From Candidatus Sericytochromatia bacterium (GTDB lineage Bacteria > Cyanobacteriota > Sericytochromatia > UBA7694): a stretch of DNA of 64,000 nt. The stretch covers positions 299,074 through 363,073 of the forward strand of contig CAWCRG010000017.1 in the NCBI GenBank assembly GCA_963797915.1. Reading direction: 5' to 3'. The position numbers and the translations under genes are program-made. Shown here piece by piece: positions 1,935-64,000 of this stretch (positions within the stretch are counted from its first letter, which is position 1; each line of letters starts with the position of its first letter). The notes beneath the pieces are model-generated. The model saw only the letters and a program-made list of their open reading frames with translations. It was not told the origin of the DNA and did no database searches.

Positions 1935-2721
1935 AGGAGGGGGTTCCTTCGGGCGACTTTTTTTCTTGTGGCGCAGGCGCTCTTTTTTTTCCGCGCTTTT
2001 TAAAGGTCTTTAGGGCATAGGCGAAGGGCATGGCAAAAGTCATTTCTGCGATGCAGGCCAGTTCGTCTCCCTTTTCCCAGTGGGGGTTTTGTTCGGCAAA
2101 AAAGGCAATGCGTTGATTACCGTCACACATGTCTGAGGTAATGGGGGTGACTTCTGCTTTTAAACAGTCCTTGGTTTTGAGCTGTTGGTTCGAAAATTGA
2201 ATGATGCCGCTTTCGGCGTTGTAGTGTTCGGGGTAAAGGGTCTTTCCAAAGGCGTCAATGATCTGCTGCATGGGTGACGGCGTCGGCTTTTCATGGCGAG
2301 GATAGTGTACCGGGAAGTTATTGGCCATCAGCAGATAAGTCTTGTAACCTTTGGAGATCAAAAACCAATAGAGCGGTGTGAAGGGTTTTTTTAATTTGGC
2401 CAAAAACAGATGCTTTAAAAAGGCCACGCCCAGGGTGCCCTGCCCCCAGTAGTCTTCATGCACCACGGTATCTCCGCTGAACATGCCGCGCACGCGTTGC
2501 CCGCTGATTTCTGTTTCCAGACCCACCAGGGTAGAAAACCCTTGAATGCTGTTGTCTTTGCGATCTTTGAGTAAAAAAACGTGGTCTTTGTGTTGTAGAT
2601 CCTGCTGAAACTGAACAAAATCGATATTGCTGTAATACTGAGAAAACAGACGAAACATATCCGCGATGGTGGTTTGTGATAGAGCGTTAACGGCAACGCC
2701 TTCGGCTTTGAGCTTTTTCAT
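1924..2721 (-). CDS. Putative N-acyltransferase (GNAT-like fold, resembles N-acyl amino acid synthase/OlsB-type)
   Basis: 265-aa ORF whose stop overlaps the downstream gene start. The assignment rests on weak overall resemblance to PF13444-like acyltransferases; no catalytic motif was verified. Confidence 0.35.
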   Translation of the reverse strand: MKKLKAEGVAVNALSQTTIADMFRLFSQYYSNIDFVQFQQDLQHKDHVFLLKDRKDNSIQGFSTLVGLETEISGQRVRGMFSGDTVVHEDYWGQGTLGVAFLKHLFLAKLKKPFTPLYWFLISKGYKTYLLMANNFPVHYPRHEKPTPSPMQQIIDAFGKTLYPEHYNAESGIIQFSNQQLKTKDCLKAEVTPITSDMCDGNQRIAFFAEQNPHWEKGDELACIAEMTFAMPFAYALKTFKKRGKKRAPAPQEKKSPEGTPSYER

Positions 2722-2726
2722 GATGA

Positions 2727-3812
2727 TTATCCAGATATTTTTCGTGGTTGACTGCGTTGCAGCAGCGCGTTTAGGTCTTCTTCGGGCAGGGGAGTCGGGC
2801 TGGCATAAGTGCCAAAGCCCCAGGGTGTGGCCACTTGTTTTTCAAGATGCTGAATGAATTTAATAATGGCCTCGTCTTCTTTGATGGGGTGCTGAAAGCG
2901 AAAACGGATGGTTTCGAAAACCTGCGTATCGCCTTTGGCGAAGTAGTTACCCACTTGCTTCGTGGCCCATAAAATCAGGGGATTTAAGGCACTCAACCCG
3001 GGCAAGTTGGGCTTTTGCTTGGGCGTTACCAACAGGGTCAGGCCTTCGGCTTTGCCCTCGGCGGTGGGGCGTAGCGCAAAAATGATGTGGCAATGCAAAA
3101 AATCGGGGCCTACGGTAACGGAGCCGGTGGTGCCTGCGGTATAACACATGGAGTAGGTCAGGTGGCTGGCGTAAAAACGTTTAAAGAAGCGCAAATACCA
3201 TTTTGTCTCAGGAATGAAGGTGATGTTGTTGAATTGAATACTGTGGGCATTGAGCGCCTGGGTGTCAAAGGCCACGTCGACGGGCAGATTGTGCACCGAA
3301 GTGAAGTGATGGGCGTCGATGGCGTTAATCATAACCACATTGGGGTGGCAGCCTTTGACGAACTGATTCCCGAAGATGGTTTCGACTTCAACCCCTTCGA
3401 GTTCAGGAATCGTATGTACGTCGTGGGTCGGGGTCTCGCCGGTGTAAATCCACAGGGTGTCGTATTTTTCTCGCACAGGATGATGCTTAATTTGGGCCTG
3501 AATACCCGGTGATTTGCGGCAGGGAATATCCACCAATGCGCCCTGATCGTCATATTTCCAGTGATGAAAAAAGCAGCGAAGCCCCGTGCCGTCTACTTTT
3601 CCCTCGGCCAGATGCGCTCCCATGTGCGGGCAATATGCATCCACTGCGCGCGCTACACCATCTTCACCGCGATAGACGGCCAATTCTTTCCCCAAAAAAT
3701 TAAGATGTTTGACCTGACCTTTTTTGAGGTCTTTTGATTTCATTGCCCAATACCACGTCTCGACGACGCTCTGGGGCTGATTAAATACTTTTGTACGGGT
3801 GAGTGCGGACAT
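2727..3812 (-). CDS. Rieske [2Fe-2S] non-heme iron oxygenase, alpha-subunit type
   Basis: Rieske motif CPHMGAHL…17 aa…CFFHHW (C-x-H…C-x-x-H) in the N-terminal third. Length and layout resemble PrnD/KshA-like single-component Rieske oxygenases. Confidence 0.8.
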   Translation of the reverse strand: MSALTRTKVFNQPQSVVETWYWAMKSKDLKKGQVKHLNFLGKELAVYRGEDGVARAVDAYCPHMGAHLAEGKVDGTGLRCFFHHWKYDDQGALVDIPCRKSPGIQAQIKHHPVREKYDTLWIYTGETPTHDVHTIPELEGVEVETIFGNQFVKGCHPNVVMINAIDAHHFTSVHNLPVDVAFDTQALNAHSIQFNNITFIPETKWYLRFFKRFYASHLTYSMCYTAGTTGSVTVGPDFLHCHIIFALRPTAEGKAEGLTLLVTPKQKPNLPGLSALNPLILWATKQVGNYFAKGDTQVFETIRFRFQHPIKEDEAIIKFIQHLEKQVATPWGFGTYASPTPLPEEDLNALLQRSQPRKISG

Positions 3813-9936: not shown

Positions 9937-10428
9937 TTATTCTGCAATCACCACTTCTTGCGTCCAGGCGCTTAAGGATAAGCGACAGGTTTTTAAGTAA
10001 TCGATGATCCTGGCTTTGCTAACGCCGCCTTCGAGGCTCAGGTCAAGCTCTAGCACAATACGATCATCGTCAGCGATGTAACTCCGTGAATAGCGTTTAC
10101 TCTGATTCCAGGTATTGACGTGCTGTAAATTGGCCTTGGAGTCTGAAAAAGAAATTTGAAATAGCAGAGACTTCCCATTTTCGTCAATCATGAGCGCGGC
10201 GCTGAGACCGTCGATTTTCCAGATGATATCGTCTTCTTTATCGACGGTGACGCTATACCCTTCGGTTTTCATAATGGCTTCAAGGGTTGTTGTATCGAGA
10301 GCGGTGTAGAGGGGCGCTGTGATCTGACTTGTGGGTTTTGCATCGGCAGCCGCTACAGCTTGCTGAGTCGGAGTGGCTACAAAAAGTAACAAAAGGCTGA
10401 GAAAGAGTGTTGAACAAGAATTTTTCAT
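9937..10428 (-). CDS. Secreted hypothetical protein (YbjN-like?)
   Basis: N-terminal signal peptide (LFLSLLLLFVATPTQQAVA), 163 aa. Confidence 0.35.
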   Translation of the reverse strand: MKNSCSTLFLSLLLLFVATPTQQAVAAADAKPTSQITAPLYTALDTTTLEAIMKTEGYSVTVDKEDDIIWKIDGLSAALMIDENGKSLLFQISFSDSKANLQHVNTWNQSKRYSRSYIADDDRIVLELDLSLEGGVSKARIIDYLKTCRLSLSAWTQEVVIAE

Positions 10429-10513
10429 CGCGATTTCCTTTGGGCTAAGATGAGAGATAGGTCAAAATGATCTTACTATATCAAAGATATTCTTTTTTGG
10501 GGAGAAAGGTGAT

Positions 10514-11204
10514 TTACCGAGATCTCAACGGGTTTTGGGCCTGCACACGGCACGGATTACCGTAGGCAATACTGTTGGCGGGAATATCCTTGGTGACCAC
10601 ACTGCCCATGCCAATCATGCAGTTTTCGCCAATGGTCACATGGTCCCGCACCGAAGCTCCTATCCCAATGCGCGTTCCTTTACCTATGCGTACAAAGCTC
10701 CCTAACATTACGCCTGGATTGAGGGTTACAAAGTCATCAAGAACACAGTGGTGGCCAATACTACAGTTGCTTCTAATATTGATGCCAAATTTTAGTGTGC
10801 TGCAGGCACCAACTGCGGTGAATCGCTCTATTTGAGCTCCAAAGTCCAGGCTTGCAGAGCGAGAAATGATGGCGGAAGGATGAATAAGTCGAGGAAACTG
10901 TTCGTTCGTAAGCTAACGGTAACAGTTTTTTAAAGGCCTGGTACACAATGGCCTTGACCGGGCTGTGGGCCATTGAAAACGCGAACTGTCCGCTCTGGGC
11001 CAATTTTTCTCGCTCTTCAGAGTTTAAGGTGCCGAGGGTATACACGTCGTGTTGCCAATTGGAGTGCGGTTGAAACTCTGCTCCAATGTTTACAGGAATA
11101 TTAAGTAAGATATTGAATTGAGTTATGTCCAGGGCCTCTTCGGCGAGCTCCATCAATGAGTTCAGTAATTTTGGCTCACAGCCGAGAATAGATAAAGAGT
11201 TCAT
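10514..11204 (-). pseudogene. Frameshifted tandem paralog of the NeuD/PglD-like hexapeptide acetyltransferase
   Basis: ORFs 10773..11204 and 10514..10708 together align along the full length of the intact 11386..12072 protein, with about 85% nucleotide identity in the aligned 3' region. The reading frame is lost near 10709-10772. Confidence 0.6.
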
Positions 11205-11385
11205 TTTTCTACTTCTTTGGGGTTGATTGGGTTTCAGCGTCGATGGCGCTATCGCTCAGTTAGCATAGCAAATATGCCCGGTGTTGGTGGCTTTATTGAA
11301 TGCTGACCATCCTTTGGCGTTTGCCCGTTAGTGAGGTTGTTTTGCGAATAGCGTTTCTTTCGTTGCTTTGAAGGCTTTGTTGCGC

Positions 11386-12072
11386 TTATAAAGTTCCCAG
11401 GGCATTTTGCCGCTGCACACGGCATGGATTACCGTAGGCAACACTATTGGCGGGAATATCTTTTGTGACCACACTGCCCATGCCAATCATGCAGTTTTCG
11501 CCAATGCTCACGTTATCTCGCACCACAGTACCTGCGCCAATACGTGTCCCTTTACCTACGTGTACAAAACTACTCAGGGTCACGCCGGGGTTGAGGGTTG
11601 AGAAGTCTTCCAGAATACAGTGGTGTCCCACGCTACTGCTTCTTTTGATATTGACACCAAAGCCCACCCTACTGCAGGCACTTATGGTCACGTTAGGATC
11701 AATGTGTACACCAAACCCGACGTTAGCAGAGCGAGACACCACAGCGGATGGGTGAATAAGTTGGGGAAATTGAGCGTGCTCCAAAGCAAAGACATTTTTA
11801 AAAGCCTCGTATAGAATGGTTTTGACCGGGTGGTGAGATACGGAAAAGGCAAACTGTCCCGCATTGCGCAGACGATCGATATGCTCTGGTGTCAGGGTCT
11901 CCAGGGTGTAAACACGGTGTTGCCAATGGGCGTGTGGTTGGAACTCTGCTCCTATTTTCACAGGAATATTCAGCAAAATGTCAAAGTGAGCCATGCCTTG
12001 AGCGTCCTCAGCCAGTTCCATAAGAACATTGAGTAGGCTTGGATCACAGCCGAGAATGGTTAACGGTTTCAT
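11386..12072 (-). CDS. Hexapeptide-repeat sugar N/O-acetyltransferase, NeuD/PglD-like
   Basis: C-terminal left-handed beta-helix repeats (VGKGTRIGAGTVVRDNVSIGENCMIGMGSVV) and an N-terminal Rossmann-like segment. Start overlaps the upstream stop. Confidence 0.6.
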   Translation of the reverse strand: MKPLTILGCDPSLLNVLMELAEDAQGMAHFDILLNIPVKIGAEFQPHAHWQHRVYTLETLTPEHIDRLRNAGQFAFSVSHHPVKTILYEAFKNVFALEHAQFPQLIHPSAVVSRSANVGFGVHIDPNVTISACSRVGFGVNIKRSSSVGHHCILEDFSTLNPGVTLSSFVHVGKGTRIGAGTVVRDNVSIGENCMIGMGSVVTKDIPANSVAYGNPCRVQRQNALGTL

Positions 12073-51842: not shown

Positions 51843-53030
51843 TTAACGGGGTTGCTTGGTGTCCAATGCACAGTTCTCACCATTCCACTCGATATCCAGA
51901 GTGCTGGCAGAAAGCAGGTCAGTACCTGCTTTTTTGGCTCGCTGCAGGGTGCGAAAAAGCATGCCAAACTGTTGCCAGAAGGGGCCAGGGTCTTGCCATT
52001 TCATGAGGGGATCCCGCGCTCGCCAGAGGTCCTTTAAAATGCGGGGGGTGTGTAAGAGATCTTGTGGAATGGCGTAGCCTATCATGGCAATACTCAGGGC
52101 CACCGGTTGTCGAGCCAGGGGACGCACCGTGCGGCTTGCGGTTTGCGGCAAAAAGGCCCGTGGTAGTTCATCTTCTTTTTCAAACAAAAAAGTGCCGGTG
52201 GTGGTGCGTGGGTTGCACTCAATGGCGTAATACAGGCCCTTATACAAAATAAAGTCAAAGGAAATTTGACCCGTATAGCCAAAATAGTGCACAATGGCGC
52301 GCACAATATGCTCAATTTCGGGAATATCGACGGATTCAAAGTAAATGGTGGCTCCAGGCCCCGCAGTGTAGACGGTGGGATACACGCTGTGGGCCGTCAG
52401 CTCGCCGTTACGCGCCACGCTATAAGAGCAAAACTGAGGGCCGTCCAAATACTCTTGTAAGACCCAGGGGCTTTGGGGTGTGGGCTGAATATTTTGGTAC
52501 ACCTTATGCATGGGGGCATTAATATACACCGCACTGGCAAAACGAGAAAACTCGGCTTTGAGTACATATTGGCCCCATTCCGGTAAACGGGTTTTGAGTT
52601 GGTCTCGGTTACCAATGCGCTCGGTGGCGGGAGCCGGTAGCTTGAGCCGTTGCAAGAGTTGGTTGAAGCGGTATTTGCTGTGCAGTTCATGGAGACAGGC
52701 CATGTCGGCGGTAAACACTTCACAGCCTTTGCCCGTGCCTTCTAAGGTTTCGCGATGCTGGGCAATATAAAAGGTTTCTTCGCAGGTGGGAATGAGGAGA
52801 TCAATCTCGCGATCCACAATAATTTCTTGTAAAGCCCGAATATAGGCGGCGGTGTGTTGGCGCGGGGCGGGTACGGTAAAGTTTTTAGCGCAGGCCCGCG
52901 AAGCCCCGGCGAGGTTAGGCTGAAGGCTTTCGGCCACATCACAGCGGTGTCCCGCTTCGGCAAAGCGACGAATCAACGCTAAAGTGGCCGGACTGCGCCC
53001 GCCGGTAAACAAAATCTTGTGTGACGGCAT
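51843..53030 (-). CDS. ATP-grasp domain protein (carboxylate-amine ligase-like)
   Basis: 395 aa with ATP-grasp-like central and C-terminal segments (…LQEYLDGPQFCSYSV… ISFDFIL…ECNPR). Confidence 0.5.
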   Translation of the reverse strand: MPSHKILFTGGRSPATLALIRRFAEAGHRCDVAESLQPNLAGASRACAKNFTVPAPRQHTAAYIRALQEIIVDREIDLLIPTCEETFYIAQHRETLEGTGKGCEVFTADMACLHELHSKYRFNQLLQRLKLPAPATERIGNRDQLKTRLPEWGQYVLKAEFSRFASAVYINAPMHKVYQNIQPTPQSPWVLQEYLDGPQFCSYSVARNGELTAHSVYPTVYTAGPGATIYFESVDIPEIEHIVRAIVHYFGYTGQISFDFILYKGLYYAIECNPRTTTGTFLFEKEDELPRAFLPQTASRTVRPLARQPVALSIAMIGYAIPQDLLHTPRILKDLWRARDPLMKWQDPGPFWQQFGMLFRTLQRAKKAGTDLLSASTLDIEWNGENCALDTKQPR

Positions 53031-54073
53031 CAGTACACCAGCACCAGCCCACCCAGCGAGAGCCCGGCACCGGTGCCCAATAAACAGACCCGATCCCCAC
53101 GGGCAATGCGGTTTTGGCTGATGGCGTCATAGAGCGCCATGGGAATGGAGGCGGCAATGCAATTGCCGTGGGTGGCCAGATGATCAATATATTGGTCTTC
53201 GCGCCAGCGAAACAAACGGCGGGCGGTCTCAATGGCTCCTTTGCTGGCCTGATGGGGCACAATAAACTCACAGTCTCTGAGTCCAAAGCCTAAAGGTTTA
53301 AACAGCGTTTTTAAGAACGGCCGCAATTTTTTAAAGGCCATGCCAAGCACTTTGGGCCCATCCATGTGAAAGGTAAAGTCTGTGGGGTTGGCGCCGGCGG
53401 TGGCGATGGCGTTGGGGTGGAGGACGTTACCGCCCCCTTTGACGTAGGTGTACATTGCGCCGTCGCCATAGGTTTCTAAGCGACTCTGCAACAGCGCGCT
53501 GGATTCGCCCTCGGGAGCGATACCCACAATGGCCGCTGCTGCCCCATCGCCGAGCAGGGTGGCACTCTCTTTTTCTGCTGGATTTAACGACCGGGAGGAA
53601 ATTTCGGCAGAGACAATGGCAATGCGCCGATAACGACCCGAAGCCAGAAAGCTGGCCGCCACTTCTAAAGCGGCAATAAAGCTCAGGCAGGTGGCATCGA
53701 CGGTAAAGCTGGGAGTCCCCGAGTTTCCTTTGCCCATGGCCCGTTGAATCAAGCAGGAGGTGTCTGGAATGGGGTAGTCATAAGAGCCAGAGGCGTTAAT
53801 AATCAGGTCGAGTTCTTCGTAAGCTAAACCCGCATTTTGAAGGGCTTCGGTCAGGGCCTGGGCACCGAGATCGGCGTTGCTTTCGTATTCAGCCCAGTGG
53901 CGAACTTCAACCCCCGACTTTTGTAAAATCCAGCCGGGCTTTAGGCCCATCTGGGTCTCCAGGGTCGAAGAATGCACGGTGCGTGGCGGCAGGTACTTAC
54001 CCATGCCAAGAATCTTGAGGGGAATGGACGGTTGCTCGTGGGGGGGCTGTATGCTCATCGTACGCTCAGTCAT
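53030..54073 (-). CDS. 3-oxoacyl-ACP synthase III (FabH-like KAS III)
   Basis: Catalytic Cys (DATCLSFIAAL), His (VPHQAS) and Asn (HGNCIAASIP) triad at the canonical spacing. Confidence 0.75.
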   Translation of the reverse strand: MTERTMSIQPPHEQPSIPLKILGMGKYLPPRTVHSSTLETQMGLKPGWILQKSGVEVRHWAEYESNADLGAQALTEALQNAGLAYEELDLIINASGSYDYPIPDTSCLIQRAMGKGNSGTPSFTVDATCLSFIAALEVAASFLASGRYRRIAIVSAEISSRSLNPAEKESATLLGDGAAAAIVGIAPEGESSALLQSRLETYGDGAMYTYVKGGGNVLHPNAIATAGANPTDFTFHMDGPKVLGMAFKKLRPFLKTLFKPLGFGLRDCEFIVPHQASKGAIETARRLFRWREDQYIDHLATHGNCIAASIPMALYDAISQNRIARGDRVCLLGTGAGLSLGGLVLVY

Positions 54074-55704
54074 TACTTTAGGCGATATACGCTGTAATCA
54101 ATATCAGGGAAGATATTGTCTAAATACTCTACTTTGCCCAACCATTCGGGGTCGATTTCATTGCGGTAAATCCCCTGATAGAGTTGGTTAAAGCGGTGCA
54201 GGTGGGTTTTTACCCGCTTCACCGCATACTCCACCATGGTTCCCGTTTTCATAATAAACGGCCAATCGGAGCTCTGGGCCAGCAAGAGCTCACGGGCGGC
54301 CTGGTTAAGGGCGCGCTCAGTCTTGCCTTCGGTCACCGGGAAGCGGTAGGCCAGTTCGATCATGCGCTCGGTGGCCTTGTGCAGGTGGCGGTAAATTTTG
54401 TCGTTGGTTTCATTGAGCCAGAAGCTATTATACCCGTTGGCTCCCCAGCTCGATGGCGAAGGTTCTGCCATTTGTTGGGTGGGGTTATTGAGTAAATACT
54501 CGTAGGGCGTGGTCATTTTGTAGGTGGACTGGTTATGGGCGGCTTTGCGCATGACCAAATTGAGCCATTCGGGGCCTTCAAACCACCAGTGACCGTAGAG
54601 TTCTGCATCGTAGGGAGACAGTACCAGCGGTTTGTGTCCGTTGAAGACGTGGGCTAAATTGGTGATCTGCTCGGCCCGGCTACGAACAAAATGGTTGGCG
54701 TGGATATCGCTTTTTTGGCGCGCCATTTCGAGATTGTAGGGCTGCTTCTCGGCGGTTTTGCCCGTGATGCGGTAATACTTAATGCCGGTGTTTTTGCGGG
54801 TGCCGTCGGGCTGGACATAATCTTTAATATAGTCAAAGTCAAGATCGTAGCCTATGTCGCGGTAATACTCTCTAAAGTAATGATCGCCAGGGTAGCCTAT
54901 TTCTGAACTCCACACCTGCTCTGAGGACTCACGGTCTCGGCAAAAAACAGCCACACCGGTATCGGGGCAAAAAATGGGGGCGTAAGCGCCGTAGCGAGAG
55001 CGGGGCGTTGAGTTGACCACGCCGTGGGTGTCGGTAAAAAAGAATTCAATGCCCGCCGCTTTAATAAAGCGATCGGCACCGGGGTAAAAGCCGCACTCCG
55101 CCAGCCAAATGCCCCGTGGGCTGCGGTCAAAGTGCTTTGTATAACTCTGGGCCGCCACCTCAATTTGGGCCTGCACGGCCTCAGGGTACATTTGAAACAG
55201 CGGTAAAAAGCCGTGGGTGGCACAGCAGGTGACAATTTCAAGACAGCCGTAATCCTGAAATTTTTTGAAACCGTTGACCAAGTTGCGGTGATAGGTATCG
55301 TTAAACAGGGTATAGGTGGCCTTAAAGCGGTCGGCGTAATACAGCGCCAGCGGGTGAAACTGGCTATCCCCTCGGGTACGCACCACTTCTTTTTCGGCCA
55401 GCTCCACCAGACGGCCAATGTATACGAGGTAGCGATCCTGAAGCAAAGGATCCGCCAGCATGGCCAGCAGTGACGGGGTCATGGTCATGGTTAAGCGAAA
55501 ATCAATGCCGTCTTTGACCAGGTTTTCAAACATCACCAATAAAGGCACGTAGGTTTCGGTAATGGCCTCATAAAGCCAGTGTTCTTCGAGAAAGTAGTCA
55601 TACTCCGGGTGGCGTACATAGGGCAGATGGGCGTGAAGCACCATGGCGTGATAGCCAATGGGATCAATCTCTAAAGCGGGGGATTCAAAGCTTTTCTGTA
55701 TCAT
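54073..55704 (-). CDS. Glycoside hydrolase family 57 protein (alpha-glucan branching enzyme/amylopullulanase-like)
   Basis: N-terminal GYHAMVLHAHLPYVRHP (GH57 HxHxPY region) and a conserved C-terminal helical domain. The likely start at 55704 overlaps the upstream stop (ATGA); the ORF extends further, to 55857. Confidence 0.65.
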   Translation of the reverse strand: MIQKSFESPALEIDPIGYHAMVLHAHLPYVRHPEYDYFLEEHWLYEAITETYVPLLVMFENLVKDGIDFRLTMTMTPSLLAMLADPLLQDRYLVYIGRLVELAEKEVVRTRGDSQFHPLALYYADRFKATYTLFNDTYHRNLVNGFKKFQDYGCLEIVTCCATHGFLPLFQMYPEAVQAQIEVAAQSYTKHFDRSPRGIWLAECGFYPGADRFIKAAGIEFFFTDTHGVVNSTPRSRYGAYAPIFCPDTGVAVFCRDRESSEQVWSSEIGYPGDHYFREYYRDIGYDLDFDYIKDYVQPDGTRKNTGIKYYRITGKTAEKQPYNLEMARQKSDIHANHFVRSRAEQITNLAHVFNGHKPLVLSPYDAELYGHWWFEGPEWLNLVMRKAAHNQSTYKMTTPYEYLLNNPTQQMAEPSPSSWGANGYNSFWLNETNDKIYRHLHKATERMIELAYRFPVTEGKTERALNQAARELLLAQSSDWPFIMKTGTMVEYAVKRVKTHLHRFNQLYQGIYRNEIDPEWLGKVEYLDNIFPDIDYSVYRLK

Positions 55705-57413
55705 GAGCGGAAAACCCCACTTCCTGAGGCCAGAGAGAGGGCCGCGTTGGCTGTGGGGGCTGGAGGCCAGCTTTCCCAGGGGTGAACATGCTGCTGACGC
55801 TGGGGCTGCAAGCTGCCCGACCAGTAGTGTTCTGAGGCACCCTGAGGCCGTAGCCAATGTATTTGTTCACTGCCACCGGGCTGGGTTTGCCAGCGCACCA
55901 TGCGCTCGCTACCGGCCTGTCTAAACCAGCTAAACAGACTTGCACCCAGAAATTTCTGAAGCATGGCGTCACTGGCACCTAAGGGCAGGTACTCTGTGAT
56001 TTCCCAGGGCCAAATGGCATAAGAGATCATCAGGGCCTGATCGTAAGGGTCGGTAATCCATTGCTCAAACATCATGGGCAAGGCATCGGTGGGGAAATCA
56101 CTAAACCAGCGCACATCGTAAGGTAAGCCGAGCCAGTTTTTGATCTCACGGCCTCCGGCTTCGCTGAGCCAGCTTTCGGTTTCTTGCTGATTAAAGCCTC
56201 GGGTGCTCTGATCGCCCTGGGCGTTGACGGTTGCGGGTCTTTCGAACGTCATGGCTTCAGTGCGAGGTGCCTCAGGCTGCTTTAAGAAGACGGCACGGCT
56301 GGGGGCCGGTCTCCAGTTGACCGCTGGAGGCGTGGTGTGTGTGTGTTGCTCTGGCGCAGGGGCTGTGGGGGGCTCCGGTACAAAGGCCCGCGGAGCGGCT
56401 CTTGCTATGGCGGGTGTTGCCACGGGACTTGCCGGTGGCGTGGGGTTAAACTGGATGGATGTGGGCTGATAGGTTTCAAAAAATGCGCCCACCAGAGACT
56501 CGGCAGCTGCGTTCTCGCGGTCCCCAGCGGGTAGGGTGAGTGGGCGATGGGTGTCTTCTAGCAGGCGATCGGTGGCCACCGGACGGGAGGGCACAAACTG
56601 GGCGAATTTGTCTTGACGAATGGGGGAAACGGTGGCGGGTGGAATATAGACGGTGTTGGAGCGGAGCAAGACCTCAAAGCCCTTTGCATGGCGATACCCC
56701 AGCTCAATGCAAAGATTGCGGTCGTGCTGTTGGGTGTTGAGATACCATTCCTTAATGAGGGGGTTACAGGGCTCAAGGGTGGTGGAATGGGCGTTGCTGC
56801 CGTTATACACAATGCCGGTGACGTCAGAGACCCTGAGCATAAACACATCGGGGGCCTGGGCCAAAACGCCTTCGACCTCAACCTGACGGGCGGTGTCAAA
56901 ATCCCAGTAGACATAAAAACGGTACGGGTCAATGGGCAGGGCCACCAGCTCGTTTTCGGCGTAGTAGTCGGGTAGCTCGATCTCTTCGTCTTTTTCTAAG
57001 ATAAAGTCTTCGTGGGTGCCTTTGTGTACAAACCGGGAGGGGCTAAATAAATAGCGGAGTCGGTGTTCTTCAATGGCTTTGCGCTCGGCGGCCTGACGGT
57101 CTTCTACGGCCTCTTCGAGGGCGCGAAGGTTTTTAACCGGCGGGGTAACGGGTGGGGTGACGGGTCTCTCTGGTGTCACAGTAAGCGTAGGCGCTGCACT
57201 TTTGGGAGTGGGTTCAGCCGTGAATTGATTCACCAGGCGTTGAATTTCGGCCTGGGTATTTTCGGGGTGACGCTGGGTACAATCGCGCGTAATGCCACGG
57301 CGCAGTTTGGAGGGGGATTTGCGGTAATAGTGCTTGATTTTAAGGTGACGTGCAATTTGGCGCAGCACCCGACTGCTAAGGGCACGCAATGGATCTTTTG
57401 GTGGGGTGCTCAT
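55701..57413 (-). CDS. DUF4912-like protein with Pro-rich linker regions
   Basis: LPIDPYRFYVYWDF segment typical of DUF4912, which is often adjacent to GH57 genes. A long Pro/Thr/Ala-rich low-complexity region follows. Confidence 0.45.
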   Translation of the reverse strand: MSTPPKDPLRALSSRVLRQIARHLKIKHYYRKSPSKLRRGITRDCTQRHPENTQAEIQRLVNQFTAEPTPKSAAPTLTVTPERPVTPPVTPPVKNLRALEEAVEDRQAAERKAIEEHRLRYLFSPSRFVHKGTHEDFILEKDEEIELPDYYAENELVALPIDPYRFYVYWDFDTARQVEVEGVLAQAPDVFMLRVSDVTGIVYNGSNAHSTTLEPCNPLIKEWYLNTQQHDRNLCIELGYRHAKGFEVLLRSNTVYIPPATVSPIRQDKFAQFVPSRPVATDRLLEDTHRPLTLPAGDRENAAAESLVGAFFETYQPTSIQFNPTPPASPVATPAIARAAPRAFVPEPPTAPAPEQHTHTTPPAVNWRPAPSRAVFLKQPEAPRTEAMTFERPATVNAQGDQSTRGFNQQETESWLSEAGGREIKNWLGLPYDVRWFSDFPTDALPMMFEQWITDPYDQALMISYAIWPWEITEYLPLGASDAMLQKFLGASLFSWFRQAGSERMVRWQTQPGGSEQIHWLRPQGASEHYWSGSLQPQRQQHVHPWESWPPAPTANAALSLASGSGVFRS

Positions 57414-57577
57414 GGAAATGATCTCCTCTTATTTTGAGCCTTATGCTGATAGGTATTGTAACGCATTTATGTGTGTTTTCCCCCGAGAAGTACTGAGACA
57501 AAAAAAAGAACATATGCGACAATACGCTTAACGCCTTTTGAAATCAGTACGTGTACCGAAGGGGAATTTAAAACATC

Positions 57578-58348
57578 ATGTGTTTAGTCGTCTGGGGATG
57601 GAAAGTCCATCCTGAATATCCGCTTATTTTTATCGCCAATCGCGATGAAGCTTATCAACGTGAAACGCAACCCCTGGCTCCCTGGAATACCCAACCCGAG
57701 ATTTATGCAGGGCAAGACAAAGTCGCTGGCGGCACCTGGGCGGGCATGGCGCGCTCGGGGCACTTTGCCGCCGTCACGAATGTGCGTAGCACCACCGAAG
57801 TCAATCTTCCAGAAGATCCACAGCGGCTGAGTCGCGGCATGTTGGTGCGTCAGTTTTTAGAGAGTCGGCAAGATCCCCTCACCTATATCGCCAAAGCCGA
57901 AAACGAGAAACATCGCTACGCTGGCTTTAATCTATTGGTGGGCGATATGCAGCAGCTCATGTATTACTCCAACCACAGCGAGCGCCCGCGCTCTTTGCGT
58001 CGCGGCATTTATGCACTGAGCAATGGGGTATTGAGTGATTCCTGGCCCAAAGCCGAAGAAAGCAAGGTGGCCTTTACCCGTGCTGTCTCTTGCCGCACCC
58101 CGTTTTTTGACGACCTTTTTGCCATCATGCAAAATGAGCGCACCTATCCGACCCATATGCTGCCGAGCACCGGCCTGGCCCCTGAGGTCGAAACCGCATT
58201 GTCAGCGGCCTTTGTTAAAACGCCAAACTACGGTACCCGTTCTACCCTGCTCATGGTGGTCAACCATAAGCAAGAAGTGACGATCGAAGAGCGGGTGTAC
58301 GATGCCGGAGCCGAAGGTCAACAGAGCTATTCTTTTAGTCTGAATTAA
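57578..58348 (+). CDS. NRDE/TANGO2 family protein
   Basis: N-terminal MCLVVWG… and IANRDE motif that names the family (PF05742). Confidence 0.7.
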   Translation: MCLVVWGWKVHPEYPLIFIANRDEAYQRETQPLAPWNTQPEIYAGQDKVAGGTWAGMARSGHFAAVTNVRSTTEVNLPEDPQRLSRGMLVRQFLESRQDPLTYIAKAENEKHRYAGFNLLVGDMQQLMYYSNHSERPRSLRRGIYALSNGVLSDSWPKAEESKVAFTRAVSCRTPFFDDLFAIMQNERTYPTHMLPSTGLAPEVETALSAAFVKTPNYGTRSTLLMVVNHKQEVTIEERVYDAGAEGQQSYSFSLN

Positions 58349-58461: not shown

Positions 58462-61200
58462 TTGATCTGTTTTAAACATTCCGCGTATGCGTTCGTGTTG
58501 TTCTGTTTCGTTCTGGCTGGCTGTCAGCCGCCAACACAACACAACACAACACAACACAACACAACACAACCTTCTCTTTTAAGCTCGATCCCTCAAATAC
58601 GGTTTTCTAAAGATCGTGTGGCCAATCGCAAAGCCATTATGGAGCATATTCGCTCCACTCAGCCCTTTAGCAACCCCATTGGCCCCGATAGTAATATTTA
58701 TCAAGAGTACTTAAAATACCGTTCCGGTGATTTTAATGTGAAATATTCCTGGGGGCCTGACAGCTATACCGGCGAATTTACCTCTAGAGGTTGTCGCATG
58801 AGCTTTGAGGACGATCCCACTGTCTATCGTGATTATTGGAGTATCCCTTATCACCGTCGCTGTCAAGTGCGCGAGACGGCGAGTGGTGATTGGGGAGTAA
58901 TTGCCGCCTGTGACAGCATTAAAGGATATGAAGGCAGTGGTTACCCCATTTACGATGTGCGCTTAACCTGTAGCAAAAACGCGGGGGGTAGCTGTGCGCT
59001 CTTTAACTTTGCCGCTTCTTTTCACACCTGCGAAACCACTGACGATGACGGTAACTCGGGCTGCTTTGCCCCGCTTAAAAACTCAGATGGTACATCGGTG
59101 CTAGATGCTGGAGGCTCACCGGTTTTGACGCAAGTGGCTTGTGACGGTGACGGTGACAATGAACCGACGGATCCCGATAATACCCCCGTTTTATTTGCGA
59201 TTAGAAATCGCAATCCCGTTTACGGCATGGTGCCCGGAGATGAAGATAATCAGCGGGGGAGTGTCTCACCCGCTGATCAAAACGGCGCTTATGACGCTGT
59301 TGACTTAGACGTCATTGACGATCGCAACGTGGGTTGGTTTTTAAGTGTTGATTTTAATGACCAAGAACTGCTGCGTGTTAATGGCACCGGCTCTCAATCT
59401 AGCATTGACTGGAACCCGAATAATCTGGCCATCTCTGATAATGGCATGGCCCGTATTGCTTTGATTCACGCGGTGACCCAGCGGGTCTTTAATTACAAGG
59501 TAAGGGTAGACAATGATCCTCCGGTGATTAGCGATGTGAGCGTGATGCCGACACAAAATGCTGATGTGGGAATCATTCGCGCTAAGGTTTTAGAGCGTAA
59601 CACAAGAAATTATCAGACTGGGATCAACGAGAGTCGTTTTCAGGTGCATTTCGATTCAGAGGCTCAGCAGCTTCTGGCACCCAGCGTCTCTTTTGACAGC
59701 GAAACGGGCGAGTTTAGTGCTGAATTCAGTGGTTACAGTGCCTATCATAGTGGGCAACAGGGCAGCCCCGAAAGTGAGTTTGGTTTTGAGCTGATCGCCG
59801 AAGACTATGTGGGCAACACGGCCTCTAGCCGCCCGCCCAAAGACAATCTCAAGCTTTCGATCCCCGACAACACTTGGTTCTCGCCCCACGAAGACAGCAC
59901 CAAAAAACAGGTAAGCTTTGACGTGCTGGATGTGGACAACACCGGAGCCAGCTGGACCGTTGAAATTCGCAAAAACGGCCAGGTGTACAAAACCTACACT
60001 GGATCCGGCAGCCAAACCCTGAGCTGGGACGGCCTGTTTGAGGGCGCTGCTGTGTCCGAAGGCAAGTACAATATCGTGCTGAAGAACGCGAAGCAGCCGG
60101 GGAGGGAGCGCGAGCGGGATTTTGCGCAGGTGGGTGTGGATATGAGCCCGCCGGAGATCACTTATCAATTACTAAAAACTTCTCAAGACGATCCCACTAA
60201 AGCCAAAATTAAAATTACTGCTCACGATCCCCAAACTGGTGTAAAAGAGCTGACCTTAAATCAAGTTGCTCAAAATATAATTCCTGGAGTTCCTATTATT
60301 CAGGAGTTGGAAACAGAAACGATTCTGGAAAAGAAATATATTGCAATCTATAACATAATTTATCCCACATTCACTCCTACAGAAAACAGTTTTAAAATAA
60401 CCAATACTCCATCTGACTCCATTGATGATCTACTTGATTATTTAGACAAAACACAAGTACTGGGGGAAGTCACTTCTAGGAGTAACATAAATATCCAGTC
60501 TTCTAAACCGATTACTTATAAAGGCTTAAGACCCTTAAAGTGTCAATCATATAAAGCCAACGGTACTTCAGGAAAAAGTCAATTTGAGCTAAGCTTAATG
60601 TATGATTTCGATCCTGAAGGTCCTGATTTGACTGCTATTATTTTACCTACTCAGAGCAACTATCAACCATTGGGACCTGGAGATGTAATGACGAGTGTTA
60701 TAGATGTTCCTGGTGTGAGCTCCGGTACAAATCTCAAATTGCAATTCCCTTTTTCGCAACAAAAGCAAGCAAAAATAAATGAAAAAAGAAATGCTGCAAA
60801 CGCCTTGTTTACGGAAACGAAAATTCTTAGATCTCAAGGGAAAGTAGCAAATGCTTTAGGGAAAGAAAATAGAGCAAACCTCTTGTCTGTAGATGCTCAA
60901 GTTTTAATTAATCTTGCGAACGATGAAGTAATAAGATTTGACCAAGCTACTAATGCTGCTTATTTGACTAATAGAGGTGTTTCATATAATCAAATGTACA
61001 ACCAGTATTTGTCTAATAGTCCAACTTTAGCCAGAGTTATGTCAGATATGTCTAAGTTTAAGCTGTCTTCCAATTTAAAGCTTAACAATAAAGGCTACGC
61101 TCAGTTGTTATTTTCAGGAATAAATTTGGATAGAATAAGAGACTCGCTTCAAGGTAGTGGTTCAGGCTCTTTTGAGAATTACTATAAGAAATGGTGGTGA
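58462..61200 (+). CDS. Large modular surface/secreted lipoprotein (912 aa) with a GC-typical body and an AT-rich C-terminal region
   Basis: Lipobox FVLAGC at residues 16-21. An AACAC repeat lies immediately after the lipobox Cys. Asp/Gly-rich calcium-binding-like segments. A ~105-bp block at 60056-60160 is repeated downstream. GC drops sharply after about 60165. Confidence 0.6.
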   Translation: MICFKHSAYAFVLFCFVLAGCQPPTQHNTTQHNTTQPSLLSSIPQIRFSKDRVANRKAIMEHIRSTQPFSNPIGPDSNIYQEYLKYRSGDFNVKYSWGPDSYTGEFTSRGCRMSFEDDPTVYRDYWSIPYHRRCQVRETASGDWGVIAACDSIKGYEGSGYPIYDVRLTCSKNAGGSCALFNFAASFHTCETTDDDGNSGCFAPLKNSDGTSVLDAGGSPVLTQVACDGDGDNEPTDPDNTPVLFAIRNRNPVYGMVPGDEDNQRGSVSPADQNGAYDAVDLDVIDDRNVGWFLSVDFNDQELLRVNGTGSQSSIDWNPNNLAISDNGMARIALIHAVTQRVFNYKVRVDNDPPVISDVSVMPTQNADVGIIRAKVLERNTRNYQTGINESRFQVHFDSEAQQLLAPSVSFDSETGEFSAEFSGYSAYHSGQQGSPESEFGFELIAEDYVGNTASSRPPKDNLKLSIPDNTWFSPHEDSTKKQVSFDVLDVDNTGASWTVEIRKNGQVYKTYTGSGSQTLSWDGLFEGAAVSEGKYNIVLKNAKQPGRERERDFAQVGVDMSPPEITYQLLKTSQDDPTKAKIKITAHDPQTGVKELTLNQVAQNIIPGVPIIQELETETILEKKYIAIYNIIYPTFTPTENSFKITNTPSDSIDDLLDYLDKTQVLGEVTSRSNINIQSSKPITYKGLRPLKCQSYKANGTSGKSQFELSLMYDFDPEGPDLTAIILPTQSNYQPLGPGDVMTSVIDVPGVSSGTNLKLQFPFSQQKQAKINEKRNAANALFTETKILRSQGKVANALGKENRANLLSVDAQVLINLANDEVIRFDQATNAAYLTNRGVSYNQMYNQYLSNSPTLARVMSDMSKFKLSSNLKLNNKGYAQLLFSGINLDRIRDSLQGSGSGSFENYYKKWW
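58533..58570 (+). repeat. Pentanucleotide microsatellite (AACAC)x7.6 inside the 5' coding region
   Basis: Read directly: aacac aacac aacac aacac aacac aacac aacac aac, encoding (QHNTT)n just after the lipoprotein signal peptide. Confidence 0.9.
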
Positions 61201-61269
61201 AACGCACTATATAGACTTTTTACTAACCAAAATTAGCGATACTGGTACTGGTAAAAATAGAAGAGTAAT

Positions 61270-61906
61270 ATGGGAGCAAACGTGTTTATGAAAGTAATTT
61301 CTTCACTTTGTAGAATGAGTCTGGTTGCAGTTATCAGTTATTTTTGTTTGATTCCGCAGGCAACATCTGAAGTTTTGAATTTGGGGTTTCTTCGATATGA
61401 AAACATTGATCAAACAATAATAGGTCCCCTACCCAATTGTTTATTTCCAGTAGCGGTAGATCTGTCTGTGAGTCAGTTTAAGAAAGGATATAATGATCAT
61501 TATCAGCTAACGACATTTGACCACTACATACAGTTTGTGATCAAAATTTCCATTCTGTTTAGGCGGTGATTCCAAAGGCATTGCTGTTGTACAATCAGGA
61601 AAAATAGCCGGTTATCTTTTACTAGAGCCCGTTGATCTATATCGATATGTTGAAAAACAAAGTATCATCGAATATATTACCCGTCAAACAAATCATTCTG
61701 ATTTTCTGCCTGAAAGTTTAAGAGCATCTTCGGGACAGCCATTAAATTTGTACGTGTTTCCTGAAGGCAATTACATCAAGCAGTACCTGATGTATGGAGA
61801 AGACACTATTTTATATGAGGGTCTTATAAAGTCTGACCTGTCTGCTGAGATAAAAAATATTCTGTTTGACTATGTCACGGAATATATTCAAAGCTTGCCA
61901 TCTTGA
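61270..61906 (+). CDS. AT-rich small protein with N-terminal hydrophobic/signal segment, candidate partner or immunity protein of the preceding C-terminal module (frameshift near 61545-61569)
   Basis: ORF 61270..61569 (MKVISSLCRMSLVAVISYFCLIPQATS…) continues without a start codon in the +1 frame from 61541 to a stop at 61904-61906. About 33% GC. Confidence 0.35.
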
Positions 61907-61989
61907 AGCTTTCTTCTGCCCCATAAAGTTGAGGTTCAATGAGACTTTAATCCACTGCAGGCTTATGCAAGCATAACGAGTTGGTGTGT

Positions 61990-62177
61990 CGCCAACGAAG
62001 AAGCGTTCAGTGTGTAAAACTACACGGTCGCAGCCAAATCCTGAGCTGGGACGGCTGCAAGGACAACTGTACCCGAAGGCAAGTACAACATCGTGCTGAA
62101 GAACGCAAAGCAGCCGGGCAAAGAGCGGGAGCGGGATTTTGCGCAGGTGGGTGTGGATATGAGCCCGCCGGAGATCA
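61990..62177 (+). repeat. Homology block duplicated from the main lipoprotein gene, a candidate recombination junction
   Basis: 62073-62177 is about 93% identical to 60056-60160 (…ccgaaggcaagtacaa…gagcccgccggagatca). Degenerate similarity extends upstream to about 61995 versus 59975. A 5-nt length difference upstream breaks the frame. Confidence 0.8.
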
Positions 62178-63073
62178 GTTACGAGATTGTGCGAACGGCC
62201 TCGGGTCGCAACACGGGCCAGTTAAAGATCGTGGTGACAGACAAGCAGTCGGGTGTTGATGCTGCTGCGACGGTGGCTACAAATGCCAGCGGTCAAATTC
62301 AGCCTGGGGTGCCGGTGATTCAGCAGGTGTTAACGGACAAGGAGAAAGTGGAACCCAAGCGCCAGGTGCGTTTTTATCAGCTGCTGTTTCCTGACTTTTT
62401 ACCCACAGAGACGCAGGCGGGTGGGGGTGATTTTCGGGTGGCGGCGGAAGGGGAAGCCCCTGCGGAGGCTGGCGTGGTTAACTTTGGTTCTGGACAAGTT
62501 CGCGATAATGTAGGGATCCCGTTTCAAATCGCTTACTCTTCACCTACCAATCCTTCGGAAATCGAAATAAAAAATCCTGGCAAATGCGTTTCTGGAAACG
62601 GAACTTTTAAAATTCATAAAATATACGATTTCGATTCTAGAACGGTCAAAAATGACGGCTCTGTAGATGAACGACCGGATCTTACGCTTGTTATTTTACC
62701 CAGTACGAATACCCCACAAGCACGAAAAGCAACAAATTTGGCTAAGCATTGTTTGCAATGTAATGCGCAAATTACGTCCACTCCGATTACCACAAACTTG
62801 AATAGCAATGAGTCTTACTCAGTTAGTACCATATACGATCCCAAAACAGGATTAGGGGGTGTGGCTCCAAACTTCCCGGAGGCTAAACCCATAACTTATC
62901 AAGTTGAGAACAGACAGGGAACAGCAAATTTATTAATTCAATCTGCTTGCAAAGGTAACTTGGGTTGCGCAGAAGGGTTAAAGCGAGATGAGTCTTCTTT
63001 TTACGTAGGAAGCAAAAATATTTTAGCTGGACTTGGACCATCGGCACAAGAAAATATTAGGCGGACTTCCTAA
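62093..63073 (+). CDS. Silent/orphan alternative C-terminal cassette homologous to residues ~545-900 of the large lipoprotein
   Basis: The translation begins inside the shared block (LKNAKQPGKERERDFAQVGVDMSPPEISY versus LKNAKQPGRERERDFAQVGVDMSPPEITY). It then parallels the main gene at about 35% identity (GVPVIQQV versus GVPIIQEL; RPDLTLVILPSTN versus GPDLTAIILPTQSN). It has only an internal GTG start and no RBS or lipoprotein N-terminus. Confidence 0.5.
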   Translation: MLKNAKQPGKERERDFAQVGVDMSPPEISYEIVRTASGRNTGQLKIVVTDKQSGVDAAATVATNASGQIQPGVPVIQQVLTDKEKVEPKRQVRFYQLLFPDFLPTETQAGGGDFRVAAEGEAPAEAGVVNFGSGQVRDNVGIPFQIAYSSPTNPSEIEIKNPGKCVSGNGTFKIHKIYDFDSRTVKNDGSVDERPDLTLVILPSTNTPQARKATNLAKHCLQCNAQITSTPITTNLNSNESYSVSTIYDPKTGLGGVAPNFPEAKPITYQVENRQGTANLLIQSACKGNLGCAEGLKRDESSFYVGSKNILAGLGPSAQENIRRTS

Positions 63074-63252
63074 AAATCATCCTTACAGTAGCACCATCTT
63101 TGTAATGGGGGTCGATCTAGATGTTGCTCTTTCTCTTGGCTATAATCCGACCCTTAATATCAACTTAAATAAACTCAGTCAAAGCAATAATATAAAAGTC
63201 AAACTGATAAGAAACAATCAGGGGCGCTGGCAAGCAGAGTGTCAAGGAGCAA

Positions 63253-63921
63253 ATGGAAATGGGTAAGATATTTATGAGTTCATATGTGGGTAATATGAAA
63301 ATACCGCTAGGTATACTAATGCTTCTAATGGTTTACCTGCCCGCAAGGTCCCAGTCAAATCAGTACCCTTCTCCTATTGTTGAGGTGAAAAGGGAATTGG
63401 GCAATCCTGCTCAAGGGGCAATGGGAGGAGTTTTACTCAATCAAAACTTAAGTGACTCATACGAGTTTTCCCCTTTAGTCAGAGGTTTGGGCAAAACCAG
63501 GGCAGAAATAAAAATACCCGGCTATCTCACAAAGAGCATCGGAGACATTCAGATAAACCAGGAGCTTTTCACTTTGGTTGAACATAAAAACGGTTCTTTC
63601 GTATCTCAGTACTATCTCAAGAACAAAGTAATCTTGGGTTACGTTCTTCATGATTTTTTACCCGTTACATATCACGGTGATGAGCTTTTTTTAAAACAAA
63701 TAGACACCTTTCCGAATGACTGTAGTGAGTATCTGAGTACAAAAATAGTATCTTCTACGGTAAGTTTTGATTGTTTTAAGAAAGAACATGATAATTATGT
63801 AGAAGAGTATATTTTTGAGGTGATAAATGAGCCTGATTACGTGGCCAGAATTTTGATATTAGATGCTTTCTACCGAAAAATCTGGAGCAAAATGCCAAGC
63901 AAAAAATCAATCAAATTATAG
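63253..63921 (+). CDS. AT-rich small secreted protein, candidate partner or immunity protein for the orphan cassette
   Basis: Signal peptide (MKIPLGILMLLMVYLPARSQS), 222 aa, about 35% GC, directly downstream of the orphan cassette. Confidence 0.4.
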   Translation: MEMGKIFMSSYVGNMKIPLGILMLLMVYLPARSQSNQYPSPIVEVKRELGNPAQGAMGGVLLNQNLSDSYEFSPLVRGLGKTRAEIKIPGYLTKSIGDIQINQELFTLVEHKNGSFVSQYYLKNKVILGYVLHDFLPVTYHGDELFLKQIDTFPNDCSEYLSTKIVSSTVSFDCFKKEHDNYVEEYIFEVINEPDYVARILILDAFYRKIWSKMPSKKSIKL

Positions 63922-64000
63922 ATGTCGTTTTATCTGAGTAAGGCTTTATGAGTACTCACAACGGCTTAGATAGTTGCTATGTAAAAAACCTACTTTCGTT

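Follow-up and report, generated by a model that had tools for sequence, protein, structure and literature searches.

A lipobox-anchored carrier gene with exchangeable C-terminal modules, partner genes and orphan cassettes in a relative of Candidatus Sericytochromatia: a putative polymorphic toxin/immunity-type system

This paper deals with a lipoprotein gene and the cassettes following it in a stretch of 64,000 nucleotides (nt), in the following called the window, from Candidatus Sericytochromatia bacterium (GenBank assembly GCA_963797915.1, contig CAWCRG010000017.1, positions 299,074 to 363,073 of the forward strand). Positions of the locus are those of the window, and its features all lie on the plus strand. 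A preliminary description, made from the sequence alone, had pointed out the order main gene, variable C-terminus, small partner gene, homology block, orphan C-terminus and second partner gene, and had compared it with polymorphic toxin loci. We describe how the locus is built and where its mosaic breakpoints lie, and we show that it recurs in other genomes and that modules and partners have moved jointly. With a probability of roughly two in three, these sequence features point to a Sec/lipobox-anchored polymorphic toxin/immunity-type cassette system with orphan cassettes.

The lipoprotein gene and its downstream cassettes

The main gene (58462..61200) is an open frame of 912 amino acids (aa) with a TTG start. 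Its product begins with MICFKHSAYAFVLFCFVLAG followed by a cysteine, which corresponds to a type II signal peptide (58462..58524); the lipobox L-A-G-C with Cys21 at 58522-58524 can be read directly from the sequence. According to prediction the carrier is a lipoprotein of the outer membrane, in which a Cys-rich N-terminal region is followed by a stalk of immunoglobulin (Ig)-like/FlgD_ig-like domains. Its last constant domain (59854..60126, approximately aa 465-555) is a FlgD_ig-like beta-sandwich, the 3' part of which is the recombination block described below. In Pfam the window protein itself gave only a weak match to Big_13, and matches to FlgD_ig and CHU_C were obtained on the aligned domain of the homologues P0012-P0017. 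A single-sequence AlphaFold model of the whole carrier was of no use (predicted local distance difference test score, pLDDT, 34), and promoter and terminator scans remained at background level.

The composition of the gene is not uniform. As noted in the preliminary description, a lipoprotein body of typical G+C content (GC, approximately 0.50-0.57) is joined to an AT-rich C-terminus: GC is 0.57 at 59850-60149, 0.34 at 60150-60449, and low through 61900. The frame becomes AT-rich at position 60165, and the C-terminal module fused to the carrier extends from there to 61291 (GC 0.33-0.39). According to its alignment it belongs to a group of modules here termed class A. It consists of an Ig-like domain, a beta-rich region with the motif C...DFD..GPDLT, a helical hairpin and a terminal beta-sheet ending in W..xC.

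Position 60165 follows exactly on the end of a direct repeat. The segment 60050..60164, which encodes ..EGKYNIVLKNAKQPGRERERDFAQVGVDMSPPEI, recurs at 62067..62181, where it heads a 5'-truncated orphan C-terminus. The two copies of this junction block are 92% identical over 115 nt with a longest exact run of 49 nt (end 60160), so that the near-exact repeat previously given as about 105 bp is confirmed in slightly longer form. Its 43-nt core occurs exactly twice in the window, versus 0 expected from 100 shuffles. If the two copies are compared in segments of 30 nt, identity is 1.0 at 60131-60160 and 0.37 at 60161-60190. The drop in identity and the drop in GC from 0.57 to 0.34 fall at the same place, hence the break in similarity is also the break in composition. 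Among the homologues, carrier similarity peaks just before V-x-x-D-x-x-P-P-E-I-x-Y, which marks the junction. An artefact in which the assembly duplicated the block was considered and is rejected, since the copies differ, their flanks are divergent although homologous, and the layout recurs in independent assemblies.

The fused module is followed by partner gene 1 (61270..61906), which encodes a signal-peptide protein of 211 aa if a 1-nt insertion near 61538 is disregarded. An alternative start, ATG 61288, overlaps the corrected stop codon of the main gene (ATGA). An intact homologue of 211 aa is encoded at 2420..3055 of the related locus L005 (JGI 3300075940), and the inter-cassette spacer (61907..62014) is common to L005 as well.

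The orphan cassette (62015..63266) is truncated at its 5' end at approximately codon 510 of the carrier and has its true stop codon TAA at 63264-63266. It opens with a degenerate stretch (62015-62066) that is weakly homologous to the main gene and contains a frame break. Because the weak homology reaches up to about 62015 across a frame-breaking gap, the orphan possesses neither a start codon of its own lineage nor an N-terminus. Its proximal Ig-like part is GC-typical up to approximately 62450 and the distal module beyond is AT-rich. Over 219 aa the frame 62093..63073 and the main C-terminus share 37% identity (E 1e-32), close to the 35% estimated earlier; the extreme tails are unrelated. The orphan had been placed at 61990..63073; it is real, but its true extent is about 62015-63266 with two frame breaks. 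After correction of the frame it can be aligned over its full length with the C-terminal 385 aa of the homologue P0015 (E 5e-91), and its corrected stop overlaps the start of partner gene 2 by 14 nt. Partner gene 2 (63253..63921) also encodes a signal-peptide protein and belongs to the class A partner family. It is present as previously described, except that its 3' end is probably frameshifted.

Recurrence of the layout and joint movement of modules and partners

The carrier family was revealed by an exhaustive HMMER search of 1.84 billion protein representatives, which returned 49 proteins. Word-indexed protein searches with the 912-aa query and with the family alignment returned essentially only the query, and exact look-ups of the window proteins in a contig index gave no match. 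In the HMMER search the family is confined to metagenome-assembled genomes (MAGs) and metagenomes related to Candidatus Sericytochromatia. Full-length homologues of the lipoprotein are P0012, P0014, P0015, P0017 and, more distantly, P0021. P0012-P0017 share 30-35% identity with the window protein across its aa 137-727, where a conserved body is followed by divergent C-termini, and the carrier homologues have the Cys-rich region and Ig-like domains in common. A lipobox is present in seven of seven complete N-termini of the family and was seen in P0012 (LGSC), P0014 (LGSC), P0015 (LLSC), P0016, P0017 (LMAC) and P0021 (LFAC). The proteins P0020, P0023, P0025, P0033, P0036 and P0041 comprise only 370-465 aa and start at or just before the junction.

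Four further assemblies show the same layout, and as many as four C-terminus/partner pairs can follow one another. The order deduced from the window alone is therefore real and a trait of the family. L004 (NCBI GCA_051715345.1) contains a main gene, two paralogous small genes without signal peptides, the orphan P0023, a signal-peptide partner and a degenerate third block; its block of 289 nt is repeated at 91% and 69%. L005 carries four C-terminus/partner pairs within 7.1 kb, and a block heads each orphan. L008, located on a 290-kb contig of the same metagenome, encodes P0014, two paralogous partners without signal peptides, an orphan of 710 aa with an unrelated C-terminus, its beta-propeller-like partner of 373 aa and a remnant of a third block; the block of 300 nt is repeated at 89%. 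In L009/L010 (ENA ERZ25074695) P0017 is followed by a gene for a secreted partner, by the remnant of a frameshifted partner gene, by the orphan P0020 and by a further secreted partner (block of 300 nt at 86%). The compositional contrast is also repeated in the related loci, with approximately 0.5-0.57 GC in the carrier core and 0.24-0.42 in the cassettes (figures computed for L004). A metagenome scan with the conserved core returned only generic FlgD_ig proteins that are distantly related; twelve of their loci, taken as a negative control, were without junction repeats.

Comparison of these loci indicates that modules are themselves mosaic. A second breakpoint, at which the GC of the orphan also falls, lies in the window orphan near 62450 (approximately 62450-62454). 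The segment 62302-62450 is common at about 90% nt identity to the window orphan, the first L005 cassette (L005a, 5-153) and L006 (791-1220), which diverge beyond it; modules have thus been exchanged at a minimum of two breakpoints, i.e. at least at the PPEI junction and at a site about 120 codons downstream of it. In cassette b of L005 the block is joined straight to the C-terminus tail, skipping approximately 190 codons (L005 1860-1880 versus window 60700-60730). The join lies at the short common motif TGAGC[C/T]CCGG, which suggests a microhomology-mediated deletion.

At least three unrelated classes of C-termini occupy the same position on the carrier, each with a partner family of its own. 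Class A includes the modules of the window main gene and orphan, those of L005a-d, and P0012, P0013, P0015, P0017, P0020, P0023, P0025, P0036 and P0041. In the alignment they share an Ig-like domain, the beta-rich part with C...DFD..GPDLT, a variable portion of approximately 150-250 aa and terminal strands ending in the invariant residues W382 and C386. The class A partners likewise form one family, with the motifs I.GYVL.D, IE.Y and A.YPK; they have signal peptides, one of them with a lipobox (L005 6309..7082). The class represented by P0014 and the L004 main gene is accompanied by tandem paralogous partners without signal peptides, and the third class, that of the 710-aa orphan of L008, by the beta-propeller-like partner.

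The preliminary description had proposed that the relation between C-termini and partners should be traced in related genomes, and module and partner indeed move jointly between carriers. The C-terminus tail, partner gene 1 and spacer of the window correspond to the L005 orphan cassette b at 95% nt identity over approximately 1250 nt. The 95% identity begins at window position 60716, and as a whole L005 1867-3383 aligns with window 60716-62276 at 87%. The distal module of the window orphan (from GKCVSGNG to its end) is 58% identical to that of P0015, while the carrier bodies are only 31% identical; downstream of P0015 in the corresponding locus (L039) lies P0062, with 58% identity to partner 2. 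The modules of L005a and L009-main are mutual best matches, and so are their partners. Overall the best C-terminus match is also the best partner match in five of nine class A modules, compared with 1.1 expected (permutation p = 0.014).

Partner genes also occur on their own. In L040 (742-1622, Logan SRR27540940) the block is joined to the last codons of an orphan-type C-terminus and followed by an intact homologue of partner 2 (90% nt identity), which we read as a partner-only remnant after loss of the module. In L009 an extra secreted-partner paralogue (8749-9447) is located 1.2 kb past the array, beside a GNAT acetyltransferase gene and with no adjoining C-terminal module; it appears to be of the same immunity-only type.

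The joint movement bears on the suggestion that the locus might equally be a system for antigenic or phase variation of a surface lipoprotein, in which the orphan would serve as a silent conversion donor and the small genes would be passengers. In silent-cassette antigenic variation (e.g. Borrelia VlsE/vls) an expressed surface lipoprotein gene is combined with promoterless homologous cassettes, and the window locus is similar insofar as a promoterless homologous copy of the C-terminus lies downstream of a surface-lipoprotein carrier. The 5' coding region moreover contains a perfect tandem repeat (CAACA)x7.8 at 58532..58570 (Tandem Repeats Finder: period 5, 7.8 copies, 100% matches) as in phase-variable surface genes. 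It is located in frame immediately 3' of the lipobox cysteine codon and translates to TQHNTTQHNTTQ. It is a candidate slipped-strand on/off switch, because gain or loss of one unit shifts the frame; the N-termini of the homologues, however, do not contain it. In contrast to VlsE/vls, only one to three cassettes are found per locus, and these include wholly unrelated domains instead of variants of one antigen. Every cassette in every locus has its own partner gene overlapping or abutting the stop of the C-terminus, and the type of partner follows the type of C-terminus. The single orphan of the window is decayed, and no conversion tracts were observed. Since the partner genes co-vary with the modules, antigenic variation is very unlikely. 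The two explanations are thus not equally compatible with the data: a partner gene in every cassette, together with partner classes that have no signal peptide, favours a polymorphic toxin system.

Proposed function and state of the window copy

Three genetic features of polymorphic toxin systems (PMC3482391), namely a constant N-terminal region with divergent C-termini, a cognate downstream gene and orphan cassettes with a homology block, are found at this locus. By analogy with such systems we infer surface exposure, toxicity, neutralization by the partner and delivery into neighbouring cells. The constant part would anchor the protein in the outer membrane and the Ig-like stalk would hold the variable C-terminal module off the cell. 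The partner gene that follows each module, overlapping its stop or lying directly against it, would have a product that protects the producer. As the class A partner has a signal peptide, we propose a periplasmic or surface location for the protection and hence for the target.

New module/partner cassettes, which are AT-rich compared with the genome of about 55% GC, would be acquired by horizontal transfer and would be joined to the carrier through homologous recombination in the block encoding the last constant Ig-like domain. The displaced older module would remain downstream as a promoterless orphan with its own block copy and partner gene, and recombination between block copies could re-fuse it to the carrier via deletion of the intervening cassette. 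The latest event in the window would then be the placement of cassette 60165-62014 ahead of the older one at 62015-63941.

Several observations weigh against the interpretation as a toxin/immunity system. The C-termini and partners match no toxin or immunity family in Pfam, NCBIfam or the PDB sequences, and an AlphaFold2 model of the class A module (pLDDT 63) gave generic helical or Ig-like structural matches only. The previous statement that neither C-terminus has a recognizable toxin motif is thereby upheld. All class A C-termini are divergent variants of a single scaffold in which one W and one C are invariant, a pattern that would be compatible with a variable binding domain as well. No recombinant genotype was observed and no delivery machinery was identified. 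The concordance of best matches falls to three of eight (p = 0.11) if the near-identical pair is left out, and no significant rank correlation between C-terminus and partner similarity emerges when all module pairs are taken together (Mantel p = 0.42), since the majority of them do not rise above noise. Finally, the fused module and its partner are both frameshifted here, as part of a set of indels affecting all four coding units of the cassette region; a cell that lost immunity to an active toxin would be expected to suffer, except if the toxin were dead as well or the indels were errors. The polymorphic toxin reading of the preliminary description is supported in layout, recurrence and joint movement, while neither toxin activity nor a toxin fold has been found.

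A candidate PD-(D/E)xK nuclease motif (..VWEVKS../..IWDLKS..) in the C-termini of the L004 main gene and P0014 was a weak local match (E 0.001) with no family hit and was dropped.

Another explanation, which would do without toxins, is that the class A modules and their partners form polymorphic pairs for recognition or adhesion at the surface, in which the lipoprotein tip binds its cognate secreted or lipid-anchored partner on the own or a neighbouring cell. The cassettes would in that case diversify kin recognition in the manner of neighbouring polymorphic ligand and receptor genes. One scaffold with invariant residues and no catalytic motif would be understandable in that case, as would the signal peptides of all class A partners, the lipobox of one of them and the failure to find a toxin fold. 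The substitutions between the window and L005 point in the same direction. They are clustered in one patch of the C-terminus tail, 60809-60892 (TETKILRSQGKVANALGKENRANLLSV versus KEVSVLRSQGKGVQASRKRDQAMRLNR), while the remaining tail is nearly invariant. In the AlphaFold2 model this patch is placed at the tip of the predicted helical hairpin, as expected of a binding interface. On the other hand, unrelated C-termini at the same position of the carrier have partners without signal peptides, which cannot meet a lipoprotein tip outside the cell. The partner-only remnant L040 fits a retained immunity gene better than half of a recognition pair, and orphan arrays are typical of toxin systems (PMC3482391). 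We therefore consider recognition pairs rather unlikely.

The family could be an exchangeable-tip device for contact-dependent competition or recognition that works without a dedicated secretion machine, in which the Ig-like stalk would present the tips to neighbouring cells. Class A, the most frequent kind of module, would act or be recognized in the cell envelope, and its secreted or lipid-anchored partners would constitute a new family. This more specific proposal is tentative, and we regard it as possible but doubtful.

The frameshifts themselves were defined by comparison with intact relatives. The main gene contains an extra T in the run 61170-61173 relative to L005/P0011, and the last 30 codons of the fused module are out of frame in the window sequence. 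Without the extra T the product has 942 aa with the stop codon TGA at 61289-61291 and ends ...RITIRNGGETHYIDFLLTKISDTGTGKNRRVIWEQTCL, which includes the family-conserved W..xC motif. In partner gene 1 the 1-nt insertion near 61538 is recognized from the intact L005 homologue; the signal peptide reported for 61270..61906 is present, but the gene is not one open frame, being split into 61270..61569 and 61571..61906. The orphan is broken at approximately 62055-62066 and again near 63050. In partner gene 2 a C is missing at 63873-63874 in comparison with three homologues. If it is restored, the end moves to 63941 and the protein ends ...LDAFYPKNLEQNAKQKINQIIDVVLSE, in line with P0061, P0062 and P0063, which all end ..DAFYP..LEQNAK..IN....L.E.

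Such damage could mean that the locus is inert debris, originating from a tandem partial duplication followed by decay and with no present function. The main-gene 3' end, partner 1 and partner 2 each contain one indel and the orphan contains two; these indels cluster in the AT-rich cassette region of 3 kb, and the rest of the window has a normal coding density (90%). This explanation does not account for the block, as a duplication that diverged uniformly cannot produce either an exact block of 49 nt beside approximately 37% identity or a break in composition at that very base. The only in-frame stops are those caused by the indels, three or more of which are located in short homopolymers, where assembly errors in AT-rich sequence are to be expected. 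When the window is compared with L005, the ratio of nonsynonymous to synonymous substitutions (dN/dS) amounts to 0.21 in the C-terminus tail (0.08 if only the last 128 codons are counted) and to 0.34 in partner 1. These low values indicate purifying selection until recently, or else that the indels are assembly errors in AT-rich sequence. Furthermore, the family-wide architecture reveals a functional design even if the window copy should not be functional. Debris is therefore unlikely as an explanation and describes at most the state of the window copy, which, given indels in all four units, is probably inactive or contains sequencing errors.

The genomic site is variable. Upstream of the locus (53030-58348) there is a row of genes encoding a KAS III-like protein, a GH57 glucan-branching-type enzyme, a DUF4912 protein and a TANGO2/NRDE protein. 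The GH57, DUF4912 and TANGO2/NRDE genes are syntenic with the Candidatus Sericytochromatia MAGs L001 (78% aa identity) and L002 (57%), in both of which the order of DUF4912 and TANGO2/NRDE is kept. This common gene order places the organism of the window near the class Sericytochromatia. The TANGO2/NRDE gene (end 58348) directly precedes the main gene with no gene between them. In L001 and L002 (around 10001-11613) the gene directly after TANGO2 encodes a HAD phosphatase, and there is no lipoprotein locus. In L007 (1-981), a short contig of a closer relative, the 3' end of TANGO2 is followed by a partner-gene remnant, a block remnant and then a cation-exchanger gene. Absence in L001 and L002 together with remnants in L007 shows that the locus is a variable island directly 3' of TANGO2/NRDE. 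No tRNA gene was found at the island border, and no relatives of the locus were found in plasmid and phage collections.

Polymorphic toxin systems shape kin discrimination and strain competition, and the carriers studied so far are almost all from cultured Proteobacteria, Firmicutes, Bacteroidota and myxobacteria. The hosts of the present locus are uncultured bacteria related to Candidatus Sericytochromatia, a lineage little explored for interactions between cells. A carrier family, a large class of C-terminal modules and a family of secreted partners can be defined from the locus, and none of these matches Pfam, NCBIfam or solved structures. With their sharp junctions, compositional breaks, orphan arrays and immunity-only remnants, these loci provide a clean natural record of cassette capture, and intact cassettes in related contigs, e.g. 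L005, offer concrete pairs for experiments. If the class A modules are envelope-acting toxins with periplasmic immunity, they would represent a new toxin/immunity fold pair; if they are recognition pairs, they would represent a new bacterial allorecognition system in non-photosynthetic relatives of cyanobacteria.

Comparison with known systems

CdiA-CT/CdiI and Rhs-CT/RhsI resemble the window locus in that the C-terminus is displaced at a conserved junction and the downstream orphan pairs keep a homologous 5' stub. AT-rich, horizontally acquired cassettes and a possible re-fusion by recombination between repeats are further common traits of their orphans. Unlike CdiA, however, neither the window protein nor its homologues contain a TPS domain, FHA repeats or a VENN motif according to Pfam, and no CdiB was detected. 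Unlike Rhs, there is no RHS/YD repeat, PAAR or VgrG (Pfam negative). The junction is not a pretoxin motif, as in CdiA and Rhs, but a domain boundary between the FlgD_ig-like domain and VxxDxxPPEIxY, and the protein is a lipoprotein.

A likeness also exists to the Sec-dependent polymorphic toxins MafB/MafI of Neisseria and to the lipobox-anchored APD1/APD2 of Amoebophilus (PMC3482391; PMC4287609). These systems have an export signal only, with no secretion-system domain, a constant carrier restricted to one lineage, and polymorphic C-termini with a cognate small gene downstream. As in the MafB-CT orphans, the promoterless C-terminus/partner cassettes keep a stretch of conserved upstream sequence. 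In contrast to MafB and APD, no DUF1020/MAFB-N, APD or MafA-like gene was found (Pfam negative) and no lipoprotein gene lies upstream; instead the carrier is itself a lipoprotein, with Ig-like/FlgD_ig-like domains as its building blocks. The families of C-termini and partners are without known relatives here, and the class A partner is secreted.

SitA/SitI of Myxococcus (Vassallo et al. 2017, PMC5562445) is the closest functional analogue. SitA is an outer-membrane lipoprotein with a conserved N-terminal part, unrelated C-terminal toxin domains and an immunity gene directly downstream, and it shares with the window protein a type II signal peptide with lipobox (LAGC here). The sitA loci contain an upstream sitB, mostly form part of prophage-like Mx-alpha units and require outer membrane exchange by TraA/TraB (PMC5562445). 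In the window no sitB-like gene precedes the main gene, the upstream neighbour being TANGO2/NRDE. SitA C-termini are recognizable nucleases, in contrast to those described here, and tandem orphan arrays headed by a repeated junction block, which differ from the described SitA layout, are the rule in the present family.

Judged by the defining features tested, the window protein thus falls outside the families of CdiA, Rhs, MafB and SitA. The idea that it might represent an undescribed delivery or variation system is nevertheless too strong, as lipobox-anchored Sec carriers with polymorphic C-termini have already been described (PMC3482391, PMC5562445). In the survey of Zhang et al. 2012 (PMC3482391), which covers such carriers with lineage-specific constant N-termini, secreted immunity proteins, to which the secreted class A partner of the window would correspond, are exceptional. 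By its sequence the window locus fits this Sec-dependent group with lineage-specific N-terminal carriers, some of which are lipobox-anchored. What is new is the carrier family together with its C-terminus and partner families, and not the kind of system.

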